Origin: Schmidtea nova
Taxonomy: Eukaryota
Direction of reading: 5' to 3'
Assembly: GCA_044892505.1 (NCBI GenBank)
Contig: CM097883.1
Coordinates: forward strand, 311,488,001 to 311,552,000
Length of the DNA stretch: 64,000 bases
This document shows, piece by piece, positions 25,101 through 64,000 of the stretch. Each line of letters begins with the position of its first letter. The stretch's first letter is position 1. A program made the position numbers and the translations under genes. The notes under the pieces are model-generated. The model was given only the letters and a program-made list of their open reading frames with translations, was not told where the DNA came from and searched no databases.

Positions 25101-28100
25101 GTATTATAATAAAGAAATTATTTAAATTTTATTTAAAAAACTGTTTTGTGGATTTTTTCAGGCTCATGAAATTTTCGATGTTTTAATTTTGACTCTTCAT
25201 TTGATTTAGGTTGTCCAGGCCTGCTTTTAAACATTAAATAGCAATTAGTTATTTGTTGATTGTTAATACGAATTATTATAAAAACAAGTGTCATAAATTT
25301 ATTTCACAAAAATATATAATAAGAATTCCACTGGGCGAGGAGTATCTAAAATAATATTATTATGAGCAATGTAAACGCCATACAATATACATATAGTTTG
25401 AAATAATTTTATATTTAGGTCACATTATTATTTATTATTTAATAAACTAGACATTATTGTCGTATAATTGACATAATAATATCTCATACGAATAAAATGT
25501 ACGTTTTCTATTAATTTGAAATTTATGTGACTAAGAAATAAATTCTTGTATGTTACGTTATTTTGTAAATAAATGCTTCATTTAAATTATGCAGCTAGAT
25601 TTATATTTCTTAAATAAATGTATTAAATTAAAAAATGTTATTTATAAAGCAATATTTTTATTCAGCTTCTTTCCACCTATTTATTATTGAGCTGGGTGGC
25701 GAAAATAGCAATTTTTAAAAGTGGACCTCGATCAAATTATTTTTGGGAACTGCTGCTCAAATTTATGACCGAAATTAACTTCTTAATTTAACATTTATGG
25801 TAATCTTTTACTTTACCGGTCCCGTATACGTAGTCTATGGGAACACACCTATTTTACTTTACCGGTCCCACATAAAAATATATTATCTTAATAATTTCTA
25901 TGCTAATTTATATTTTAACNNNNNNNNNNNNNNNNNNNNNNNNNNNNNNNNNNNNNNNNNNNNNNNNNNNNNNNNNNNNNNNNNNNNNNNNNNNNNNNNN
26001 NNNNNNNNNNNNNNNNNNNNNNNNNNNNNNNNNNNNNNNNNNNNNNNNNNNNNNNNNNNNNNNNNNNNNNNNNNNNNNNNNNNNNNNNNNNNNNNNNNNN
26101 NNNNNNNNNNNNNNNNNNNNNNNNNNNNNNNNNNNNNNNNNNNNNNNNNNNNNNNNNNNNNNNNNNNNNNNNNNNNNNNNNNNNNNNNNNNNNNNNNNNN
26201 NNNNNNNNNNNNNNNNNNNNNNNNNNNNNNNNNNNNNNNNNNNNNNNNNNNNNNNNNNNNNNNNNNNNNNNNNNNNNNNNNNNNNNNNNNNNNTGTATTT
26301 GACAATCTTTTGACTGATGTTGTTAATTGGTATGTTGTTTGAATCATTCAAAATTATATTGGATTACTTTGAATTTCGGCACCTGTAAAGTAAAAGATTA
26401 CCAACATTTATTTTAATTCAAATTGATTATTCTAATATTTTTGAACATCTTCAAAGCCCTATTACCTTTTCCTCTAAATTTATAAATAAACATAAATTTC
26501 TAGTATATAATTATGTCTTCATTTTACCTAAACATCTACATTGTAGACTGCTGAAAGACTGAACAAAATCAGACAAAAAAACTTTGAAATAAGACAAGGC
26601 ATGGGGTTTGAAGATTTTGTAAAAAAATCTGATATTGAAGGCAATGGAAACTTTGAGGTAGTGTTTTAATATATGAAATCTCTAATGTATTTCTATAGAA
26701 TTACAATCAAATTGAAGCTCGTAAAGCTTTGGAAGAACTGAAAGTAAGAACAGAATTTTTTTACAAATCTAAATTTTTATTAGATTAGTTCAGTTATTTA
26801 CATCTTTTTTTCATCTTTGATCTTTTGTTTTTTATTTTAGGAAATCTTTTTATTCTTTTAACAGACTATAGATCAAATTTTTTTAAAAACACACAAATTT
26901 TCGGCACTGCCTTTTTCAATTGTGTCGCGCAGTTATTAATATTTTTTGAGAAATAAATTGTTTCTTTTTTAAACTAAATTAAACTTTTAAACTAAAAACA
27001 AATCTGACAATGAAGAACTTTTTTAAATAAATTTATTGTTTTTGTGTTAGGCAAGTGATTATTATAAAAATTAAAATGTACTAAAATTCGAGAGCAAATC
27101 AATTCAAAATTTAAAAAGAAATATTTTCTTGGGTAGGGGAGGTATGAGCAATTTTAAATATGAAAATAATAATTTTAAAACGATGAAGGGGGAGAGGAGT
27201 TCACAGAAAATGTACGTGGTGCGCCCAATGAGTCGTGAGACTAAAATAGAAAGACTTTAGATATCAACACAAAACTTTGTATTTAGAACAAGCATGGTAA
27301 ATAGGCATCATTTCTCAAAATAATTTCCTTCTGCACTGACACAATTTTCCCAGCGAATAACGAGGTTTTCGAAGGTGTTTTTGAAGAATTCTGGAGGCTT
27401 TTCTCCCAGAAAACTCTCCACGGCTGCTCTCATATCTTGTTTGTTGGCAAACACCTGGCCGCGCAGATGCTTCTTAAGATGGTTAAACAGGAAAAAATCG
27501 GAGAGAGCTAAATCGGGGCTTTATGGTGGATGGGGAAGCAAATTGAGCCCGTAACGCTCAATTTTGGCCATGGAAACGCTGCTGGTGTGGATGGGAGCAT
27601 TATCGTGAAAAAAATAGAGATCACACACTCTGCTCTTGCGTCGTGCCTTCCTTGCTTGCTGCACGATGTTGGAGTAGTAAGAACTATTGATCTTCACGCC
27701 GGATTCAGCAAAGTCAGTCAGAATAATGCCATTGGCGTCCCAAAACACCGTCAACAAGAGAGCCTTTCGGTGGCAAGTTGAGGGCCGCATTTTCAGTGAG
27801 CTGCTTTCTCCTGGCAGTTTCCATTCTTGAGACTCTCTTTTAGATTCGGGGACACAAAGGAACAACGGTTTCTCGTCCACAGTGATGATATTATCAATGA
27901 AACGGTCTCCAACATTGGTCCTGATCTGCAGATTCTCCAAGCAGCATTCTAAGCGTCGTTGTCGCATTTCCACCGTTAAGAAGCGTGGCACAAAACGGGA
28001 ACATAGTTTTCGAATACCACTTTCAGTGAGGAGAGTATGCATAGTGCCTTTGCTCACATTTAGACGGGTTGTGAGCTCTCACGTCGTTATTTTTCTCTCG

Positions 28101-51192: not shown

Positions 51193-53592
51193 TTTTCCAT
51201 ATTTTAATCATTGATTTTTCTTTAATCAATTTTAGGCAACCAGAATTACCACTTTAGATTAAATGCTCATGGTAGATTGTTGTCACAATAATTATTGTCA
51301 TCGATTTACTGTTAGTAGTATGATGTGTCACATCTAGCTCACTTACACTACCTCCCCTAATATTTACGATCGAATGATTATAGTGTGCGTAAACTTGATT
51401 TAGCGGTAATTCGATGTGAGTAAACCAACTTTGGCGGGAATAAAGTGTGTGTACACCAAGTTCGGCGGGAATTAAGTGTGTGTACGTGGACTTTTGCGGA
51501 ATATAGTGGGGAATTAGGAATATCTTAATTCCTAATTAGGAATATCTAAATTTACGATACAAATCAAGAATTTCGATAAATAGTTTTGATAAATAAAATA
51601 TATTTAACCCAAATCGAATAAAGTAAACTCGTTTCTATAAATTACTATTACGCTTTAGGTTCATAACGAGAAAAATTATCATCCTAATTTTAATTAAATA
51701 AGTGGTGTCGATTTGAGTACGGTGTTCGTGCTATGATCAAAGTTATTTCGTAATTCCGTTTGTAATATTGTGAAAGAGATTTCTTTGTGAACGATAGTTA
51801 TTTGCGATGTGAACGCATATTTTCGATAGCTGTTATTCTGAGTAGAAGCTTTTATGTAGTTGTGATAATCAATTAGCTTTATATAGATATGAATAACTAC
51901 TGTAGTATAATACAAATAATTTTAATTTGAACAACCTTGCGCTTGGTCAAGCCACTACTTCTCATATAGTCAGGTATTAGATGAAGCAAGCTTGGGTGTT
52001 TGATCTCACTTAAATGAAAAAATGGATCAGAAAGCTGAACAACCCCCAGCTAATCTGATGATTCACATAAGTAACTAATGACGGTACAACTTATCGCTGG
52101 ACCATCATCAGACGTATAGAAGAATAAAGAATTTATTTAGGCAATTATATCGATAAATAACATAATATGCATATTTTAGTGGTTATTTATTTGCATGTGT
52201 TGGTGTGTTGTGTTTAAAAATTCAACCTCTGAATCAGCTTTCTTCACTTTCTCTTTCTAAATCGTTCTTCCTCGCTCTCTAGAGTCCAACACACACATAA
52301 AAACTTAACTGTTCATACACCCGTGAATTACCCTAATCATTCACGTTGGAATTGTGTATAACAGCCGATCGCAAGCCAGCAGGTGAGCTCCTTTTCCATA
52401 TTTTAATCATTGATTTTTCTTTAATCAATTTTAGGCAACCAGAATTACCACTTTAGATTAAATGCTCAAGGTAGATTGTTGTCACAATAATTATTGTCAT
52501 CGATTTACTGTTAGTAGTATGATGTGTCACATCTAGCTCACTTACACTACCTCCCCTAATATTTACGATCGAATGATTATAGTGTGCGTAAACTTGATTT
52601 AGCGGTAATTCGATGTGAGTAAACCAACTTTGGCGGGAATAAAGTGTGTGTACACCAAGTTCGGCGGGAATTAAGTGTGTGTACGTGGACTTTTGCGGAA
52701 TATAGTGGGGAATTAGGAATATCTTAATTCCTAATTAGGAATATCTAAATTTACGATACAAATCAAGAATTTCGATAAATAGTTTTGATAAATAAAATAT
52801 ATTTAACCCAAATCGAATAAAGTAAACTCGTTTCTATAAATTACTATTACGCTTTAGGTTCATAACGAGAAAAATTATCATCCTAATTTTAATTAAATAA
52901 GTGGTGTCGATTTGAGTACGGTGTTCGTGCTATGATCAAAGTTATTTCGTAATTCCGTTTGTAATATTGTGAAAGAGATTTCTTTGTGAACGATAGTTAT
53001 TTGCGATGTGAACGCATATTTTCGATAGCTGTTATTCTGAGTAGAAGCTTTTATGTAGTTGTGATAATCAATTAGCTTTATATAGATATGAATAACTACT
53101 GTAGTATAATACAAATAATTTTAATTTGAACAACCTTGCGCTTGGTCAAGCCACTACTTCTCATATAGTCAGGTATTAGATGAAGCAAGCTTGGGTGTTT
53201 GATCTCACTTAAATGAAAAAATGGATCAGAAAGCTGAACAACCCCCAGCTAATCTGATGATTCACATAAGTAACTAATGACGGTACAACTTATCGCTGGA
53301 CCATCATCAGACGTATAGAAGAATAAAGAATTTATTTAGGCAATTATATCGATAAATAACATAATATGCATATTTTAGTGGTTATTTATTTGCATGTGTT
53401 GGTGTGTTGTGTTTAAAAATTCAACCTCTGAATTAGCTTTCTTCACTTTCTCTTTCTAAATCGTTCTTCCTCGCTCTCTAGGGTCCAACACACACATAAA
53501 AACTTAACTGTTCATACACCCGTGAATTACCCTAATCATTCACGTTGGAATTGTGTATAACAGCCGATCGCAAGCCAGCAGGTGAGCTCCTT
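51193..53592. repeat. Tandem direct duplication, period 1199 bp
   Basis: Copies 51193-52393 and 52392-53592. Only three differences were seen by eye (ctcatgg/ctcaagg, gaatcagc/gaattagc, ctagagtcc/ctagggtcc). Confidence 0.97.
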
Positions 53593-53652
53593 CACAAGAA
53601 CTACTCCTGACCTGTCGCATCGTTCGGGTTCTAGCTTGACCGATAGAAGGTC
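53470..53652 (-). ncRNA. Candidate structured RNA, copy A (unknown family)
   Basis: Homologous to 58622-58797 with compensatory changes in three helices and a conserved GNRA loop (see findings). Confidence 0.6.
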
Positions 53653-53896
53653 TCGTTGTAACTCTCCTCACCCTGTGTTTAGGTCTCTCATTTTGGGTGT
53701 TCACTTCCTATTGCATATATTACCATTCAGCCTATTAATTTATTGTTCCTATTAGTTACTTTGTTGTTTACGGTTTCATGAGTCGATGAAAACTGGAGTT
53801 CATTTGTCGTTATTACTTTATTTAATTCAATTCTCGTCTAACAAATAACAACACATTTTTTTTTAAATACATATATTTATTCTCATAACATTACAA

Positions 53897-54331
53897 TCAC
53901 TGTTTGCGTTTCACGCCTGTTGTTCCAATACTGTTCACCTCGATGACCATTTTGTTGGTGTCGACCTCCATCCTCAGTTTCAACTGTTGTCGGCGTTGTG
54001 CGTGTGATTTCCTTCGTTTTCGCTTTGTGGTTTGCGGTATTGGTATCTCGATTTCGGTATTTGTTGATAGGTCTGGTGTGGGAAACCATCTTTCTAACGT
54101 TATCGGGCGAATTAAGTTTTTAAGGTTGTCCGTTATGAATTTCTCTGTAATGAACGATCTACAGTTCTTTAACTCAATTTTTAAGGCATCTATCTCTTGT
54201 TTCTGATCCTGTATAACTTGCGTCGCTCTGATCAATTGCTCCTTCACCTTCTTCATTTCCGTCGGTGAGAAATAACTGTTTTCTAGGTCGATAAGCCTCC
54301 TCTTCAACTGTCCGATAGTCTTCTCGTCCAT
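53897..54331 (-). CDS. Cassette A ORF2: coiled-coil protein with basic C-terminus, unknown function
   Basis: 144 aa; 50/78 identical to the cassette B paralog over LKRR...LERWFPTP; contains KRKRRK. Confidence 0.7.
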   Translation of the reverse strand: MDEKTIGQLKRRLIDLENSYFSPTEMKKVKEQLIRATQVIQDQKQEIDALKIELKNCRSFITEKFITDNLKNLIRPITLERWFPTPDLSTNTEIEIPIPQTTKRKRRKSHAQRRQQLKLRMEVDTNKMVIEVNSIGTTGVKRKQ

Positions 54332-54782
54332 GGCTCTTTTCTTTACTGGAAGATAGAAGCATATTTGTGATTATTGAGTTAGTTTTTCATCGCAAAACGA
54401 GGGATTTATACTCGGCCCTTACTTGGTTACGACTCGGTTTTCTCCACCTCTTCGCTTCCTCGGTTGGTGGCTGACCTTCGTTGACTAAACGCTATATATT
54501 TGTATACAAGTGCAGTGCATTTAACCTAACAGATTTCTATTCCTGTGCTTTTTGCCTAATTTCCTAAAAACTTTTTAGTTTTGTATTACGCTACTGGATT
54601 TACTATCTCTTTTAGTTTATTGCATGTGAATTAGAGTGTTTACTGTCGGTGGAGTTTTTACGCGATGACCTTTTATTTACATTTACTTTACCAATTTTTA
54701 TTACTAAACAAGTGAATAGAGGAAAAACAACTACACAAAGAAACGTATAATTGATGGTTAATACAGGTACAGTGGATCACAT

Positions 54783-55307
54783 TCAATAATATTCGGCGAT
54801 GATCTCGACCTCGCTGTCGTCGTCCTCGTCATCACTAAGCGTTGAAGGGCTGTATGGTGAATCCGTCGGACTTGGAGATGGAGCCGGGGCGAACACGAAT
54901 CGTCCCGTACTCAGGAACTCTTCTTGCGGAATCTCGCCTTGATAATAAACTTGGTATCTCCCGGGAATTTCGGTGGGAGTCTCCACAAAGTATTTCGCCT
55001 GGTTTGGCCAGCAAGGGCGATCCACGTTGATCGGCCATTCTCTGCTGCCATGCCAGATGATATCTGATGGACTGTCTCGGAATAAACTGAACGGCGGGGC
55101 AATTCCCGTCCTTTCGAATTCCTCCTTGTGCTCGTGTAGGATCTCATTGGCCAACTCAGTTGGGATCGGCTTGAGCGACATGAGCATCATTAGGTGCGTA
55201 TCGTACATCCGCGTCTCGTCCATGAAATCTTTCTCTCTCCGAGTCTCTCCTTGAGGTCCTGTAACTTGAATTCCGGTATAATACATCGTTCGTGAATGTC
55301 TAAGCAT
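54783..55307 (-). CDS. Cassette A ORF1: 174-aa unknown protein with Pro/Ser/acidic tail
   Basis: Intact ORF preceded by a GC box and TATATAAAA (~55330-55350, minus strand); 38/56 identical to cassette B ORF1 over M.LK.IPTELA...VDRP. Confidence 0.7.
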   Translation of the reverse strand: MLRHSRTMYYTGIQVTGPQGETRREKDFMDETRMYDTHLMMLMSLKPIPTELANEILHEHKEEFERTGIAPPFSLFRDSPSDIIWHGSREWPINVDRPCWPNQAKYFVETPTEIPGRYQVYYQGEIPQEEFLSTGRFVFAPAPSPSPTDSPYSPSTLSDDEDDDSEVEIIAEYY

Positions 55308-57504
55308 ACAAGAATTGGGTAATTCACAATTTATATACCGCGCCCCCCATCATGTGTCCTCGTTCTCGCCTCGTTCACTCGCTTAGTAATATTTGGGGAA
55401 TTAATTATTTATTATATGTTTCATGATTTGCGAACAGTATCAATGACGCTGATGTAGGGTAAGGTTCCCGAAATTTCCCCATTTTATCAATTATCATTCT
55501 CCACTAGATTTCCTATTTCGTGTTGATTTTTGCTCGATGGAGATTATTTTAATTGACCAATTTTGTGATGTTCAGCATTTAATTATGATCATTATTCTTA
55601 CAATCGGTAATTGTTACTTTCTCGGAGCCAGCAATTTCAGGCCAATTATTAGATTTCTGCGAGCTCTAGTAAGAACTACGAAGGCATCGCTAATTGCCTT
55701 TCCGGTAATTATTTCCTGATCTCAACGAAATTGCTGTCGGTTAAGGACTCGTGTATTTGATGAATCTCTAATCTATCTCGTATCTGTAATTACCGCATTC
55801 CTCGACGGGATCTACTGGGTTTTCTATAATTCGCTCGGGCATCTGATTTGATTGTGAATCATTAGAGAGGTTATTAGGCATAATTATGTAATCGCATGAA
55901 TTATTATGTGCAGGCAGTTTTTATACGATTTGGTGGGAATGGGTAAACGATTAGAGCTGGAATTTTATCGATTTTATGTTTCAATCTTTCCATACACAAA
56001 ACGCATTTCACCTACTATAGGAATTGGTTTACAACGGTTAGATGGAAACTCACGATTTCGCTTGGATTTACTGTGATATTTTCTAGAGATTTATCAAAAA
56101 TTTCAACGAACGCAGCCGCTTTGGGTTTTTCCAAAAATTAGTAGGTTTATCGATCAACGTTTTCGCTTTCTACGGATTATATTTAGTTTCGATATTTCTA
56201 TGCTGCAACGGCCTCCGGACATTCACTCATTCCCTGTTCCTCATAAAAAGGTCTTTACGGAGTAACCCATCTTCGCCCCGTGCCGAGACACGAAACAAAG
56301 ATGGATCTCCCCGGAGAGCTGACAATCAACGGGATCGCCGAACTCTCGCATTATCTATATACAATTAATGAAAACGAAATATGATTTATGGTAAAAATTT
56401 ATATTTGGCATAACAAGTTACTTACAATTTCCTTCTGATTTAGACACAATATTTCAGCGATTCTTCCTCGAGCGTTGTTGAATTCTTCTTGAACTGATAA
56501 TGGCGTACTTGACTGTGAATACTTGTGCGAGTAATAGTGTCGAGTGATTTCGTGTTAGTATAAATGACATTAAATTGACTGACCTGAGCGCTTCCTTATA
56601 TATTAAAATCGACGCTCAGGCAGCCAATCAGAATCGAGTAACCTTTTTATTGGTTAAACGCTCGATTTTCTTATTCATTTATTTTATTTTGTATTATTCG
56701 TTATTATTTTATTATTTTTCGTTGTTATTTTATTATTTTCATTATTATTCTTTTATTTTCTGCCTTTTACTCATATTTCACATATTTTGTCATTTTTCTC
56801 GCATTTCATTTCTTATTTTTGTTTTAATTGTGCTTTTATTGTTAATTGTCATTTTTTATTTGTTTTATTATTATTTTTACATTCTTCATTTTATCTTTAT
56901 TCTCTCATGATTAATTGTTTACTTTTCGCCATTATCCGTTCCTTCATCAACCCAACACATGGGAAAATGTCCACAGAATGTATCAATAATTTAAAATGTG
57001 AATATGTGTCTAAAATAAAATCATAATTTAGAAATTAAGTGGATAACAGAAAGAATTAAACTCAAATGAAACAAAATAAATTATAATTATTCATATAAAT
57101 TCTACATAAGTGTATATGGCAGATTTTTGTGGTAATAATAAAATATTTAAATTTAAATGATAACAAAACAATAACAATTTACCGGCATGGGATAATCGGG
57201 GCATGATCCGCATTATCCCATGTCCATCGATGAAATAAATTTTACATTTTTCTCGGATTTTTCCTTTCGGTAAAAATTGGTCAAAGATTAGGATGTTAGA
57301 TAATATCGTCGGTACGATTCGGCTTCCAACGACGAAATTGTGAATGGTTTCTATGATCTTAGAGAGTCGGCCGGTTCTCCGCGGATGTGATTCTCCATCG
57401 AAATTTACGATGCAGGTAAATCAAAATTCAATTTGACAGGGGTTCGCCTGTATAAGTTTTACCCGGTTGGTAGTGCAAAATTCTGATTCTACAGAAATTT
57501 ATGG

Positions 57505-57506
<2 letters not shown>

Positions 57507-57558
<52 letters not shown>
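57507..57558. repeat. (TA)n microsatellite; others at ~1497-1550 and ~10105-10181
   Basis: Uninterrupted TA runs. Confidence 0.98.
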
Positions 57559-57560
<2 letters not shown>

Positions 57561-58621
57561 ATTTCTGATTCTTATTTCCGTTAATGCATTTAAACAAATT
57601 GTTCTAGAAGGAATTTTCGATTCTTCCAAAATTAAATTTAACAATTTTAAGCAAAATTAAATTATTATTTTTGTAAAAACTTTAAATAATTTATTTTTAA
57701 CCTAAAATTTTATTTTTCAATTAAAGTTTTTTATAATTTAATTCAATTTACTAAATTTTTATCTAAAGCAATTTTCTTTTATATTTTTTGAGTTTTTAAA
57801 GTAAAAATCGAAATTTTCCTTCAGAAAATATGTTAATTTTTTTTAATTTGTAATTTTATTCTATAATTGATGTTTTTATGTTATATTTGTGTTTTTAACG
57901 TGTATATTTGATGCGATTTTGTTCAGTTTAATTTTTAAACGTGTTTTAATTAATTATTTATGTGTTTTACTGTTATTTTGTTTTACTTGGTGTTTTAGCT
58001 GAAAGAAATTTTAAATTTACTTCTTACGCGCTCTCTACATGCTGTATTACCACTTTATTTAAACAAATTTCAGTTTTTGCCCAACACAAAACCCTCGGGG
58101 GCTCGCAAAAATTGCGACCCACAATTTGTCAGAGGGTTTAAGAATCAAGAATAAACAAAAGGGCAAAAGGCTGTACAATATACACGACCTACTTGGTCGT
58201 GATCATGCCTTCGCGTGCAATAAGAATAAAAAGCGATAAAAAGTTCTTACATATACATCAATATGAATCTACATTGACTCGCAAATAAAATGAAATGAAA
58301 TGAAATACGTGCCTACAGCGGCATAACCAAAGTTCGATATGAGTTTAATGAGACTTTGATCAAAGTTTATAAATTTTTATAAGGTTTTTATTGATTGACT
58401 TTTTGGTTGAGTTTTTGGGTCTTCGATTTTGGTGATTCGGTTATTTCATTGTTTGAATCTGTTAATGCTGTATAATTTATTATTATGCTTGTTATTATCT
58501 AGGTAACATTTTTGGGCGTCATTGTGGATACAGGATGACCCCCCTTTTTTATTATTATTTTTGTTGCGACGTGTTGTTAAAAATATCTCCTATTCTCTAT
58601 TGCTTTCCTCAGTTACCTCTC

Positions 58622-58797
58622 GCACTAGGGTCACAACATGCACATAAAAATCCTTACTACCCATGCACCCGTAAATACCCTACTTATTTACGTTGGTGCT
58701 GTGCATGACAGCCGACTGTTAATCGACAGGCAGCTCCGTTACCAGAACTACTCTCGATTGGTCACTCGTTCGGGTTCTATAGGGTCGATAGAAGGTC
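58622..58797 (-). ncRNA. Candidate structured RNA, copy B (unknown family)
   Basis: Homologous to 53470-53652 with covarying helices. Confidence 0.6.
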
Positions 58798-59004
58798 ATC
58801 TTATCCTTTACCCTTCACTTTTTAGCTGGTCACGAATTTAGGGTGTCCTTTATCAATTCGCTATTTAGACCTCATTTTTATTCATCGGGAAAATACTTTC
58901 AATTATTAATTTAATATAACGCCAAATTTCTACTAATAATACAAAACAACAGGGTAATTACACAATGCATGTATTTAAATACTACAACACATTTGCGACA
59001 CGAG

Positions 59005-59430
59005 TTATTTAATTATTCTTTTATTTTCAAACAGTTTCTGAACGTGAGTCTGTCGATGCTCTCTTTTGATTCTTTTCCAGTCTCTTTTTCGCTTGACGAC
59101 GTCGTTGTGCTGGGTCTTTCTTTGCTTCCTCGCTGTCGGATTGGATCCTTCGGTTAATCTACTGACCTCCTTCCAAGTATGATTTGGGGTTGGAAACCAT
59201 CTTTCCAAAGTCATTGATCTGATTAACTCTCGCAGGTTCTCGGATATGAACTTTTGGGTGATTGACTTCCTACAGTTGTTTAATTCGATTCTGATTGCCT
59301 CGATCTCGATTCGCTGATCTTCTATGACTCGAACTGCACGTGACAGTTTCTCTCTCACCTTCTTCATCTCAACCGGCGCGAAATAGTTACCTTCCAGTTC
59401 TAGAATCCTCCGTTTTAATTTGCCCTCTAA
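59005..59430 (-). CDS. Cassette B ORF2 (paralog of 53897-54331); start unclear, possibly spliced
   Basis: Open frame upstream of the annotated Met reads EGKLKRRILELEGNYFAPVEMKKVREK, matching A's GQLKRRLIDLENSYFSPTEMKKVKEQ. Confidence 0.65.
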   Translation of the reverse strand, partial: LEGKLKRRILELEGNYFAPVEMKKVREKLSRAVRVIEDQRIEIEAIRIELNNCRKSITQKFISENLRELIRSMTLERWFPTPNHTWKEVSRLTEGSNPTARKQRKTQHNDVVKRKRDWKRIKREHRQTHVQKLFENKRIIK

Positions 59431-59753
59431 CTCCTTTTCCGCTTCGATTGAGTAATTTGCAGATTACTGAATCGTTAGTTGTATTTAATGCAATGCTTAT
59501 CAATACTACAAAACTGTTAAAATCTCCATCATTTTCATCTAGTAACCTGACACGTATTTCTATTTCTCGTCTTTCCACTCATTTTTATTATATATCATAT
59601 CATTATCTCAATAAGAACTGTCACTATTCTCGATTCTAAATTAATAAAAGTTTTTTTGGTTTAATACATACAATGAACAAACTAGAATACATAATATTTT
59701 AAAATCACGTAAACAACCCATTTAGATTTTTGTCATTACAACACTCCTTCCCG

Positions 59754-60240
59754 TCATTGATTCCACTCTTCTACATCTGAATTATCGGCGCTAGATTCCG
59801 AAGGGCTAAAATAAGAGTCGGTGGCTATTTTCGTGGGAGCAGGGCTAAATACTAATTGCCCTATGCTCAGAAATTCCTCATGTGGGATCGAGCCCTGGTA
59901 AAATATCCGATATGGCCCTGGAACCACGTGGACGTTTCCACAAAATATTTTGGTAGGTCTCTGACTAAGGTCGATCCACATCGATCGGCCACTTTTGGCT
60001 CCGGTGCCAAATCACTTCGTCGGGGCTGTCCCGGAACAGGCTAAATGGTAGGGTGGCCCCGGTTTTTCTAAACGTCTCATAGTGCTCTTTTAAAATCTCC
60101 TGAGCTAATTCGGTTGGGATAGTTTTGAGTGGCATTGCCACGATTATATGGTTTTCGTATACTTTCTCACTGTTTCTTCTTAAATTGGGTACATTCGACT
60201 CTAACTTGGCTCCCTGGATTCGGTAGCATGTATTGTGCAT
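59754..60240 (-). pseudogene. Cassette B ORF1, disrupted paralog of 54783-55307
   Basis: TAG after VDRP, then KYFVET in a second frame and PGPYRIFYQGSIPHEEFLS..VFSPAP in a third. Confidence 0.8.
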
Positions 60241-60279
60241 AATCGTCTAAAGCATATGAGTAGGTAGATGTGTGTAGTT

Positions 60280-60760
60280 GGGAACAAAGACATGCGTGAG
60301 CGTGAAACAAAGAACAAAGACACCCCTTCCCCCCTCCCGGGGGGGTAAATTTATTTTTTTTGATGACTCATCGATGAGTCATAAATGACTCTTTTTTTTC
60401 GAAAAATATTCTCTTTTTTTCAAACTTTTTTTTCAAAAATTTGTTTATGACGCATCGATGAGTCATTGATGACTCATACTTTTTTCGAAAAAATATTCTG
60501 TTTTTTTAAGAAAATTTTTTTTTTTAACTTTCTAGTCATCGATGACTCATACTTTTTTCGAAAAAAATTCTGTTTTTTTTTTAAATTTTTATTTGACTAA
60601 TCTATTACTGATGGATGACTCATCCAAAATTTTTATGACTCATCGAAGACATTTCAACAAAGACATTTCAATGCCAAATTCCTTAACAAAGGCAATTCAT
60701 TGCCAAATTCCTTAACAAAGACAAAAGCCTTACCAAAGACATTATTAGGGAGATAATGGT
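60280..60760. promoter_or_regulatory. Cluster of AP-1/TRE (TGACTCA/TGAGTCA) and AACAAAG (SOX/TCF-type) motifs
   Basis: Perfect TRE motifs at ~60364, 60375, 60459, 60470, 60543, 60616 and 60635, several as TGACTCATCGATGAGTCA-type palindromes; repeated AACAAAG at ~60284-60320 and ~60655-60720. Confidence 0.6.
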
Positions 60761-60859
60761 CCCTTGGCGCAATTCAAGTTCTACCCACCCCCCTAAAAAG
60801 ATGTTCTTTGCGTTTACGGGCCACTATGTTTTTCTGGCCATTTTTGTATTGGAAAATTT

Positions 60860-61240
60860 TTGTCGGTCTTTTGTATAGGGATTTTAAGCTCCGAGATTTT
60901 TTCGGGCAAAAAGTGACTCTGGTATTTTTGTACATAGAATTTTGGTCTGGATTTTATTTTGTATAGGGATTTTGGGCTCCGAGATTTTTCTCGGACATAA
61001 AGGGACTCTGGTATTTTGTACATGGAATTTTGGTCGGGGTTTTTTGTACATCATTTTCTACTCCCAGAATTTTCTAGGGCAAAAAGGGACTCTGGTATTT
61101 TTGAATTAAATTATAAATTTTAATGGTAAATAAAAACACGGGTAAATGTTTTAAACAAGTAAAATACATTGAAATTATTTTGAAAAGGATTTTCAATTCC
61201 CATAATTTCTCGGGCAAAAAGGGACTCTAGTAATTTTTAT
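60860..61240. repeat. Degenerate ~88-bp tandem repeat (two full and two partial copies)
   Basis: Core CTCCGAGATTTTT.CGG.CA.AAAGGGACTCTGGTATTTT recurs at ~60890, ~60978, ~61062 and ~61198. Confidence 0.8.
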
Positions 61241-61829
61241 ACAGAAATTTTCAAGAGATTTTTATGGTAAATAAAAACACGTGTAAATTTATCAAAATGT
61301 TAAATAGATTTAAATAGTTTTTATTTCTATGGTAAAATACAAAGACAAAAGAGTGACATAATATTTAAAATTTAATAAAAAAAGGTTAAAATTAATTTTT
61401 TGGAGAAATCTGAGTTGGTAAATTTTTAAATATAAAATTAAATTCTTTTTCACAAAATGAAATTCTTTTATTTCACAAAATTATTTTTAAACCAAGAAAA
61501 GTCTTAACTAATAAAATTTTTTACCAAATAAAAATTAAACAATACAAAACTAATTTCAAATACAAAAATTTCACAATACAAAAACTAAATTTAAATACAA
61601 AATTTTATTCAGGGAAGGTTTTGTCGTAATATATTCTTCTTAATTCTGCCAAAAGTATATGGATAATTTCTTTTTCTTATATTCTTGGCAACAACTAATT
61701 AAAATAAAGATTTTTATCTAATAAAAAGAAATATTTTTAACTAACAAAAAGAAACATTTTTAACTAATAAAAATTCAAATAAGTGCAAATTTTATTAAAA
61801 TAAATCTTCGTCATCGTCTTCTTCTGTAA

Positions 61830-64000
61830 CTTGATTGAATTATCTGTCATTAATGTCTTTATAATGCCCACCCAAACCCTTTTATCATCTTTATTACTTA
61901 GTGCAATTTTTGAATTTTTAAAGCTATATAACTGATGATTTTTTGTACCTATTCTAAATTGTGGTACACTAATCTTTGAGTTATTTAAATAACATTTAAC
62001 ATATGAATCGTGGTCTATTTTAGTATCCTTTAATGTTGCTCCCTTAACTTTTGTAGTATTATTTTTACCCAACAAGCTGTAACATTTCGGTCTAAGGAAA
62101 ATCCACTCATCATATCCTTCACCCTTACTTTAATCTTTGAATTTCCCAATAACAGAATCCAATTTCTTGCTGTATAGTGGGTGATCAGTTTGATAATTTG
62201 ATTTATCTAACAAGTTATCATTTTTCATTTCATTTAATAATATTTCTAATTTTTAATTTTTAATTTCTAGAAAAAACGAATCTGTATCGCCTGCTACGAT
62301 ATTTATCTGACAACTATATTTGTCGCGATATTTTTGAAAATCTTTGTATTGCAATTCGTACATTCGAAATTTTGATAAATCAAGCACCGAGTGTCCAATA
62401 TAACTCGGTCTATCTAAACAAATCGAATCTGGATTTAATAAAGCAGCAACTAAATTATCGTCGATTTTAATAGATTTTTTGAAAGAAGGTTTTGATGTAT
62501 ATTTAACTAGTTTTTTCTCCGTTGAACATAATCTTAAATTCATTCTCCTTTTAAGATTTTCCACTGTTTTGACATACAGACTATTATTGAGTAATTTGAA
62601 AAAGTTTTTATCTAAAGTATTAGTACTTTTCGTCAGCAATTCAGTTTTGGTGTCTATATATTTTTTGAAAATTGGAGATTGCTTAAATTTAACTGATCTA
62701 TTTATCTTTGTGACTTTAACACCAAGTTCTAAATATAATTGAAGTAATCGTCAATGAATTATATAATTATTTTTAGGGTAATGAGTCAATAGTAATTTTT
62801 CTACTTTTGAACCTCGTGGTTTCATTTTTCTGCAGCTACCGGGAAATCATCCAAGAAATCATGAATTTCAGCAGGTATTTCCAAATCTACCTCTAAAGTG
62901 TAACCGTAAGATATAGATTCAAGATTTAGATTAATACAGTCATGCAAAATATTATCTAAATTATCAGTCACCCAACTAAATTCTCCACAAGGTAAAGGTT
63001 CACTTAAAGCCCATCCGTAAAGATTATTTAAATCGATATACAATAATTCTGTATTTTCATCGGTTTTAACGAAGTGTTTATTTACAAAAGTCAAACCTCC
63101 TCGAATTCCCCCTTCATAAAAGCTAAACATTTCATTATCTGTTATTAATTCTATTGGTTCATCTAAAGTCATTAAAGAAGATGACCAAGACATGCCAGGA
63201 ATACCGAAGTAATTCAATAGCTCTAATCTATTGTGAGCTATAGATTTGTTTCGAAATTGCTGAAAGAAATGAGCCAAAAGAAAGCAATCAAGTTTCAAGT
63301 AAGTCATCATATAATCTAAAAGAGTAACACAGTTTGTTTCTGTCCAAATCAGTTGTGCCTTTTCATATTCTTCTTTTGAAACACCTTTCCAGATTGGTGG
63401 TAACTCATAAGTATTTTCAAGTACTTCTAAACTTGTAGCAAAGCTATACGGAAAAATACCCTTTTCAGAAACTATAGTTCCATTAAAAACCGAATTTGTC
63501 AAAGGTAAAGATTTCAATGTTTTCACTGCCTTTGCCAAAGAATCATTCACAAACTGGTATGAGTCTATAAATCTTAAGCTAATCTTGTCAACATGAGCTA
63601 TCAATGAAATAAATTTTTCAGTTGTAATAGGTATACAACCCAATGACCAATTCTTGAACTTATTTAATCCGTGTTTAAGAATATGGTGCATATCGTATCC
63701 TTTCAAGTTATGAAAAACTATTGGTAAAGACTTATTGATTTTTCTATTAATGTTACACGTTTGACATGCTGCACCTAAATATTTCCCAGTGAAATGGTCG
63801 TGGTCTCTTACAGGATCTACGATATTTTTCATACAAAGGTAACAAGTGGTACCATTTTTAAATTGTTTCTCTTCAATTTCAGTCAATCTATTCATTGGTT
63901 TGTTTCCATTTTTATTGTAATATGGAAGAACTTTTAATAAAGCAATATCTTCAACCGCTTTTAAAAAATCTTCTACACAATTTAGTAAGATTTTGTCCCA
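61830..64000 (-). pseudogene. Maverick/Polinton (adintovirus-type) protein-primed DNA polymerase B with endonuclease VII-like zinc domain; 5'-partial and disrupted
   Basis: CYLC..VRDHDHFTGKYLGAACQTCN, FHNLKGYD, FIDSYQF, KGIFPY, GIRGG, YIDLNNLYGWAL, KLLNNSLY(V)KT, AGDTDS, IGKFKD*, LRPKCYS, KIALSNKDDKR. Frameshift at ~62825, in-frame stops at ~62753 and ~62130, and a further frameshift at ~62250. Confidence 0.93.

Follow-up and report, generated by a model that had tools for sequence, protein, structure and literature searches.

The minus strand of one stretch of the genome of the planarian Schmidtea nova carries two open reading frame (ORF) cassettes with a shared conserved sequence at their ends, and the question raised by this locus is what that sequence is and what it does. 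The stretch analysed (GenBank assembly GCA_044892505.1, contig CM097883.1, positions 311,488,001 to 311,552,000; 64,000 nt, hereafter the window) had been annotated from the sequence of the two copies, and this initial annotation proposed a covarying, pseudoknotted non-coding RNA behind the second ORF (ORF2) of each cassette, perhaps a new ribozyme, a 3′-end processing or stability element, or a packaging or replication signal. Both cassettes are long terminal repeats (LTRs) of Burro-type giant Gypsy elements, and the conserved sequence is a real RNA of four domains and about 260 nt, referred to here as the U5 (unique 5′) RNA, which was not previously described in the open-access literature searched. 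Its fold, its place, always just before the PBS (primer-binding site), and the identity of the primer, tRNA-Pro, are established. The RNA may be a platform for the initiation of reverse transcription that docks and activates the tRNA-Pro primer, a proposal drawn from complementarities in the sequence to which we give about an even chance.

Copies of the RNA in the window and in the genome

A covariance model finds five copies of the RNA in the window, where two had been recognised:

53397-53652, minus strand: copy A, domains I to IV, with the closing spacer and PBS of domain IV absent (solo LTR)
58562-58797, minus strand: copy B (146.7 bits)
52277-52398, minus strand: 3′ half of the RNA, from a 1.2-kb tandem duplication (51193-52392) broken in domain II
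49483-49709, minus strand: copy of a third family (G-type) at an LTR end, lacking the kissing loop (103.8 bits)
48855-49038, minus strand: distant truncated copy (47.5 bits)

The tandem duplication (51193-53592, 99.75 % identical) repeats the terminal 196 nt of the solo LTR together with its flank, with the break in domain II. Copies A and B are 74.9 % identical (53478-53652 against 58625-58797), compared with 67 % for the core of ORF2, 50.6 % for both flanks and 51.4 % for a shuffled baseline.

An exact pattern of two words from the RNA matched 12,397 sites (6,184 and 6,213) in this one AT-rich animal genome, a lower bound on the number of RNA copies, and its reversed control matched none. 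The same pattern had no match in viral contigs and one in metagenomes, where a bacterial gene matched by chance. Rfam 15, with which the initial annotation had proposed a comparison, contained nothing that matched the RNA (three chance microRNA matches lay elsewhere in 50000-64000) and gave no match in nine family loci at E values up to 1. Searches of the genome itself and profile scans recovered about a dozen LTR families, designated here by letters, and 111 distinct parsed copies of the RNA form 12 clusters at roughly 40-70 % identity. These diverged families supply natural covariation for a fold that is absent from Rfam.

Consensus fold

The first three domains, as numbered in copy A, are:

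53625-53652, minus strand: domain I, with a near-invariant CCUUCUAWCGG loop, in the block CCUUCUAWCGG...GRACCC
53573-53612, minus strand: domain II, a long hairpin capped by a GNRA loop (53592-53595), with GAGU/CACCUG as its invariant internal loop
53508-53563, minus strand: domain III, an outer helix, an 8-nt bulge ending in CCAA (53545-53552) opposite a single G, an inner helix, and an apical loop with UAGGGU (53529-53534)

All of the words quoted in the initial annotation are present at their places on the minus strand, and larger alignments bear out the three helices built from them, namely the AGU...GCU hairpin of domain II and the outer and inner helices of domain III. An additional covarying helix lies below the hairpin, and the GNRA cap is missing from family G (0 of 33 copies). 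In domain I, CC/GG and UUC/GRA may form a mini-pseudoknot, a possible arrangement whose candidate pairs show no two-sided change.

The domain III loop ranges from about 6 to 14 nt across families and pairs over 4-8 bp with a downstream CCCUA, with flanking pairs that co-vary. The co-varying loop and tail combinations include UAGGGU/ACCCUA, UAGGGA/UCCCUA, GUUAGGG/CCCUAAC, AUUAGGG/CCCUAAU and GGGG/CCCC. Swaps of loops and tails among nine families gave P values of 0.02-0.03 (family K was included though mis-parsed, and one representative in which the tail match was absent was left out). Family G has no such loop, and therefore no AGGG/CCCU kiss.

RNAalifold, run on 28 copies from eight families aligned with plain MAFFT, predicted 28 pairs, of which 21 show changes on both sides; this is the wider test of covariation that had been suggested when only two copies were to hand. 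A structure of 40 pairs is satisfied in 91.5 % of cells and has a covariation score of 0.521; shuffled alignments score 0.239 and slid ones at most 0.133. With a tree-aware null (19 representatives, 12 replicates), the top seven of 13,861 column pairs are pairs of the model and are spread over four helices. The pseudoknot was evaluated sequence by sequence, as its columns are out of register for the GGGG families in the tree-aware alignment. The fold is thus established by covariation across families; the two window copies taken alone are unexceptional (folding z-scores of -1.3 and -1.8). The preference for the minus strand, inferred earlier from G-U pairs, persists in the larger set, with 58 G-U against 23 A-C cells and a lower folding z-score on the sense strand in 11 of 12 copies. 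A multiloop closed by CCGA/UCGG is a feature of family A (14/14 copies) that is rare in B (3/17) and does not occur in families C to H and K, and as a general feature this part of the earlier fold is abandoned.

About 35 bases of the RNA are near-invariant and many of these are unpaired, as would suit a catalytic RNA, and domain I recalls the P3/L3/P1.1 layout of ribozymes like that of hepatitis delta virus (HDV). A new class of self-cleaving ribozyme is nevertheless very improbable. In the sections of PMC8495972 drawn on here, HDV-like ribozymes are described as having a P1 of at least 6 bp starting at G+1 and a catalytic C that opens J4/2, ahead of the 3′ strand of P2, and pistol ribozymes as having three conserved A residues after P1 and a G40 between the pseudoknot and a conserved P3. 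The corresponding stem has 2-4 bp and a variable first base in families A and C to H and is weak in B (at least 3 bp in 6/17 copies), the alignments contain no conserved C before the tail, and the strand that might serve as P2 is freely variable in families E and G and has the LTR end as its partner. As for the pistol features, the inner helix leads into G-G-(U/C), and sequence beyond CCCUA is not conserved. The catalytic features of both classes are therefore missing, as the initial annotation had stated, and Rfam offers no other class. In addition, a cut in U5 would separate the genome from its R (repeat) region, and most of the invariant words have other partners, in the LTR end or the arms of the tRNA.

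Three further readings of conserved words were dropped. CACCTG as an E-box in DNA is contradicted by CACTG in family G; a splice donor or U1 mimic is contradicted by the lack of donors in families E and G; and mimicry of a tRNA anticodon by the domain III loop conflicts with its variable length and its absence from G.

The host LTRs and the fourth domain

The LTRs that contain copies A and B are:

53397-56957, minus strand: solo LTR of family A, a Burro-type giant Gypsy element, with termini TGTTGG...CCAACA
58562-60259, minus strand: older LTR fragment of the sister family B, with broken homologues of ORF1 and ORF2

The first is identified as a solo LTR by its termini, by a 4-bp target duplication, CATG (53393-53396 and 56958-56961), and by one public contig that bridges the empty insertion site. 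The cassette matches both termini of elements with 3.57-kb repeats, which share 99.6-99.9 % identity and lie about 21.5 kb apart. As expected of Burro-type Gypsy elements, these have long direct repeats with TG...CA ends, a short target duplication, and gag, env and pol in between, with Pfam domains for Gag, a mononegavirus-like fusion protein, protease, reverse transcriptase (RT), RNase H, integrase, ankyrin repeats and TRAF/MATH in the internal region.

Folding through to the PBS, in the families other than F, reveals a fourth domain, in which the GU-rich tail of the RNA pairs with the 3′ end of its own LTR:

53485-53500, minus strand: 5′ strand of domain IV, UUUAUGU...GUUGG, partner of the LTR end (53397-53415) and, where the LTR is a 5′ one, also of the UAAA spacer before the PBS
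53478-53484, minus strand: ACCCUAG in the domain IV loop, which kisses the domain III loop and is complementary to the D-arm of tRNA-Pro

UUUAUG pairs with the final CA of the LTR and the UAAA spacer, and this spacer is present only after 5′ LTRs, so that domain IV would be completed only there. The duplex of tail and LTR end averages -14.6 kcal/mol within copies (n=18) and -10.4 kcal/mol across families (n=290), and none of 200,000 permutations of families matched the energy of the true pairing. GUUG, which had been paired with CAAC in an internal pseudoknot, and the second downstream partner that had suggested a bistable outer helix, thus both belong to the pairing with the LTR end. This places CCCUAG in the loop of domain IV, and a kiss of two hairpin loops is the better reading of the nested double pseudoknot proposed earlier; the AGGG/CCCU part of the latter stands, outside family G, while CAAC/GUUG and the nesting do not. 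Pairing of UUUAUGU with the 5′ edge was also considered and rejected, as this helix varies freely in families E, G and A.

Position relative to the PBS and in the transcript

The RNA occupies the terminal 220-270 nt of the LTR and is followed directly by the tRNA-Pro PBS. Among the first sites listed on contig C1, it is just upstream of a PBS in 41 of 41 (21 found by the exact pattern and 20 by the covariance model, one of them truncated where its stretch ends and one weak, at 27.5 bits), and the distance from its start to the PBS is 224-267 nt. The PBS is exactly complementary to the 3′-terminal 18 nt of this genome's tRNA-Pro(UGG), lies 6 nt beyond the LTR in family A, and is shared by all of the PBS-linked RNA copies examined. 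In one related env-bearing Gypsy element with a different PBS, the LTRs contained no copy of the RNA (n=1). The tRNA-Pro(UGG) genes are in tandem arrays (C1, 459.6 Mb) with a period of 308 bp and 1,106 pattern matches, and one unit has the anticodon TAT.

The link to ORF2 in the initial annotation does not hold generally. The very abundant LTRs of family F (4,149 candidates, mainly solo; about 1.45 kb, as in locus L167:286-1750) keep the RNA and have neither ORF1 nor ORF2, and a family G element (C1, 515.43-515.46 Mb) with identical 4.2-kb LTRs keeps both RNA and PBS, with no RT match found. A GC-rich, hairpin-like stretch was seen about 200-300 nt upstream of the RNA in family F LTRs. What was annotated is therefore a covarying, pseudoknotted RNA of the sense strand, but one that forms the U5 end of an LTR abutting the PBS rather than a free-standing non-coding RNA. 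It can serve as a marker for LTRs of this clade even when they are gene-free.

Two sets of sequence words bear on transcription of the family A LTR:

56420-56660, minus strand: likely LTR promoter, with CCAAT boxes, TATATAA (56596-56602), TCAGTC (about 56580) and a GTAAGT donor (56420-56425)
53876-53881, minus strand: AAUAAA just past the ORF2 stop, followed by a GU-rich tract; the likely poly(A) signal, which would place the RNA in U5

The CCAAT, TATA and initiator-like words are about 360-380 nt into the LTR and are followed by the GTAAGT donor; the layout in family D is similar. Representatives of six families, though not all copies, have AAUAAA after the ORF2 stop and 175-235 nt ahead of the RNA. 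The gag frame starts 3.3 kb beyond the PBS and downstream of a splice acceptor; in two families (L032:3694-4175 and L031:1570-2190), it is open for 140-185 codons after the acceptor and ahead of the first Met. From these promoter, splice and poly(A) words, we infer a likely U5 location for the RNA, which would then be carried only by unspliced genomic RNA that has bypassed the 5′ poly(A) site. Use of these promoter and poly(A) words would give an R region of about 2.7 kb (53876-56602) that contains ORF1 and ORF2; any solo LTR could then produce mRNAs for both, and the 5′ poly(A) site would have to be read through. A 3′-end or stability role for the ORF2 mRNA, one of the functions first suggested, is unlikely, because the RNA is 175-235 nt past AAUAAA and abuts the PBS; a new ribozyme is unsupported, and a packaging or replication signal is the option that we favour. 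Contigs of four sets mapped to the locus had no splice joints and were DNA-like, with a shared block bounded by loose ends at 53486 and 53653.

Control of poly(A) read-through, with a domain IV that is fully formed only in the 5′ LTR distinguishing the two LTRs, would account for the spacing from AAUAAA in six families, for a domain IV base that needs the 5′-specific spacer, and for bypass of the 5′ poly(A) site in an R region of the inferred size. We consider it improbable, since it is built on sequence words, the donor-like words at the 5′ edge of the RNA are missing in families E and G, and the pairing at the PBS junction is kept although the distance to the LTR end varies. Translation initiation was considered also. 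In the intergenic internal ribosome entry site (IRES) of dicistroviruses, the ORF starts directly after the last pseudoknot; a reading by eye in families A, B and D ran into stop codons after no more than about 15 codons, unlike this layout.

Complementarity to tRNA-Pro

In retroviruses, a primer activation signal (PAS) is a word in U5, upstream of the PBS, that is complementary to the T-arm of the primer, and the RNA contains such a word:

53625-53631, minus strand: GAACCCG, candidate PAS, complementary to bases 49-55 (T-arm) of tRNA-Pro

The duplex of GAACCCG with the T-arm has 6-8 bp and energies of -11 to -16 kcal/mol in ten of ten families. CCAA in the domain III bulge matches the anticodon loop and CCCUAG the D-arm, and the T-arm, anticodon and D-arm boxes stand in antiparallel order to the tRNA. 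Scored as a colinear chain, the real primer reached 21, none of 60 phage tRNAs exceeded 20 and antisense words gave 8, with P values of 0.002-0.004 from shuffling.

In the proposed initiation platform, the hairpins would fold a site some 240 nt distant into the vicinity of the PBS, with domain IV closing in the 5′ LTR. Annealing of the 3′ 18 nt of the tRNA to the PBS is predicted to free the T-arm strand for pairing with GAACCCG, in the manner of a PAS and anti-PAS; the CCAA bulge and the CCCUAG loop may contact the anticodon and D arms, and the two small pseudoknots could mask the tRNA boxes until the primer and the Gag chaperone arrive.

Several points weigh against this proposal. The tRNA test was post hoc, with word borders fixed once the match had been seen, and the margin of the chain score over the best control tRNA is a single point. 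GAAC fits the T-loop of any tRNA, the CCAA match to the anticodon is only 4 bp, and the match to the D-arm shrinks to 5 bp in families E and K and to 3-4 bp in the abundant family G. One PBS is common to all families, and compensatory change with the primer is therefore not visible; the coupling of RNA and PBS is expected from common descent as well. Fixation of GRA and CCC could alternatively reflect internal pairing, with UUC of domain I and the invariant GGG of domain III, respectively. The own LTR end is the best partner of the tail in only five of 18 copies, the borders of R and U5 are themselves placed by sequence words, and the platform offers no explanation for the invariant domain I loop or the GAGU/CACCUG loop.

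A stronger version, in which the RNA is a clamp that reads tRNA-Pro over its full length through T-arm, anticodon and D-arm boxes in exact antiparallel order, is doubtful. So is its corollary that the proline codon CCA is displayed in the bulge, much as in a T-box, with the pseudoknots as catches that the tRNA opens. If true, such a clamp would be an RNA-only device for primer selection in an animal retroelement. The RNA is compact and the candidate tRNA contacts can be tested in vitro.

The same location would suit a signal bound mainly by Gag for packaging or dimerisation, in which the loop-loop kiss could join two genomes. The RNA is present in every family examined, coding-poor ones included, is probably limited to unspliced RNA, and has a precedent in the 5′ region of Ty1, where, in the parts of PMC3681743 and PMC3592414 relied on here, a region with a pseudoknot serves both packaging and priming. 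As the main function this is unlikely: the kissing loop is missing in family G, a signal inside the LTR would also tag read-through RNA of thousands of solo LTRs, and the T-arm match is left unexplained. A packaging role is compatible with the initiation platform, and could be additional to it.

LTR-encoded ORFs and neighbouring features

The solo LTR encodes two ORFs:

54783-55307, minus strand: ORF1, 174 aa
53897-54331, minus strand: ORF2, 144 aa, with a predicted coiled coil and arginine-rich helix

Pfam gave no match to ORF1. The layout of ORF2 is Rev/Rec-like, and across families its coiled coil and arginine-rich motif are retained at 21-49 % identity to the window copy, with the arginine-rich helix predicted in all seven aligned copies and leucine-rich tails resembling export signals in some. 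These predictions raise the possibility that the RNA is a response element of the Rev/Rex type, which the ORF2 protein would bind in exporting unspliced genomic RNA. Confinement of the RNA to unspliced transcripts, inferred from the position of the gag frame 3.3 kb past the PBS and behind an acceptor, would fit, and long-range tertiary pairs are common in retroelement export elements, according to the portions of PMC4588558 used here. However, the RNA core is much more conserved than ORF2 and is kept in family F LTRs without it, the exact closure of domain IV at the PBS would be left unexplained, and a search for ORF2 homologues found none that would tie it to Rev-like proteins, the lone profile match being a repetitive bacterial surface protein. 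We judge this role rather unlikely.

Two other features adjoin the LTRs or lie elsewhere in the window. Genes that look Polinton/Maverick-like, including a type-B DNA polymerase, adjoin many such LTRs (window 61867-64000, minus strand; L039, L046, L126, L192 and L195), and an inverted pair of mariner-type transposase copies, 97 % identical and about 13 kb apart, is at 27208-28323 and 41358-42469.

Comparison with known systems

The U5 RNA shares small pseudoknots and a hairpin loop paired to a downstream CCCU with the HDV-like and pistol ribozymes, as far as these are covered in the sections cited of PMC8495972, and differs in lacking their catalytic features. With Rev/Rex elements and the MusD transport element, as presented in the cited part of PMC4588558, it has in common long irregular hairpins, tertiary pairs, a place in unspliced RNA and a basic helical protein encoded nearby; in the planarian element, the RNA is at the PBS and is kept without ORF2, and the pairing of protein and RNA is putative.

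The host elements resemble the planarian Burro/GYPSM1 elements in their size (about 25 kb), in Gag, in the mononegavirus-like fusion protein that lies between gag and pol, and in a PR-RT-RH-IN (protease, RT, RNase H, integrase) order, and in ankyrin and MATH/TRAF domains and tandem repeats in the leader (PMC6431247). The description in section 7 of that paper does not include an LTR RNA structure, a primer or an LTR-encoded ORF, and no PAS or U5 structure for Burro or other animal Gypsy elements, and no Burro LTR RNA, was found in the open-access literature. In retroviruses and the Ty elements of yeast, by comparison, such structures have been investigated in depth.

In Ty1 and Ty3, also LTR retrotransposons, the RNA contacts the T and D arms of the primer and a pseudoknot lies beside the PBS, going by the parts of PMC3592414, PMC5371799 and PMC3681743 consulted. 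Their PBS is short and split or extended (10 nt in Ty1) and the primer is tRNA-iMet, whereas the planarian element has a full-length, 18-nt PBS for tRNA-Pro, with every candidate box upstream of it in U5.

The closest architecture is that of the PBS-segment of retroviruses; the likeness is one of architecture, and sequence similarity was not searched for. The portions cited of PMC11181671 and PMC1865047 place a PAS, masked by pairing, in all retroviral genomes, and in human immunodeficiency virus an A-rich loop pairs with the anticodon of the primer (PMC11181671). Both systems have a U5 word before the PBS that is complementary to the T-arm and possibly masked, a conserved bulge complementary to the anticodon, and a stem that closes beside the PBS. 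The planarian box differs in being about 240 nt upstream, within a four-domain fold that includes a kiss, and in the additional match to the D-arm. If the tRNA boxes are real, the retroviral PAS idea would extend to env-bearing Gypsy elements.

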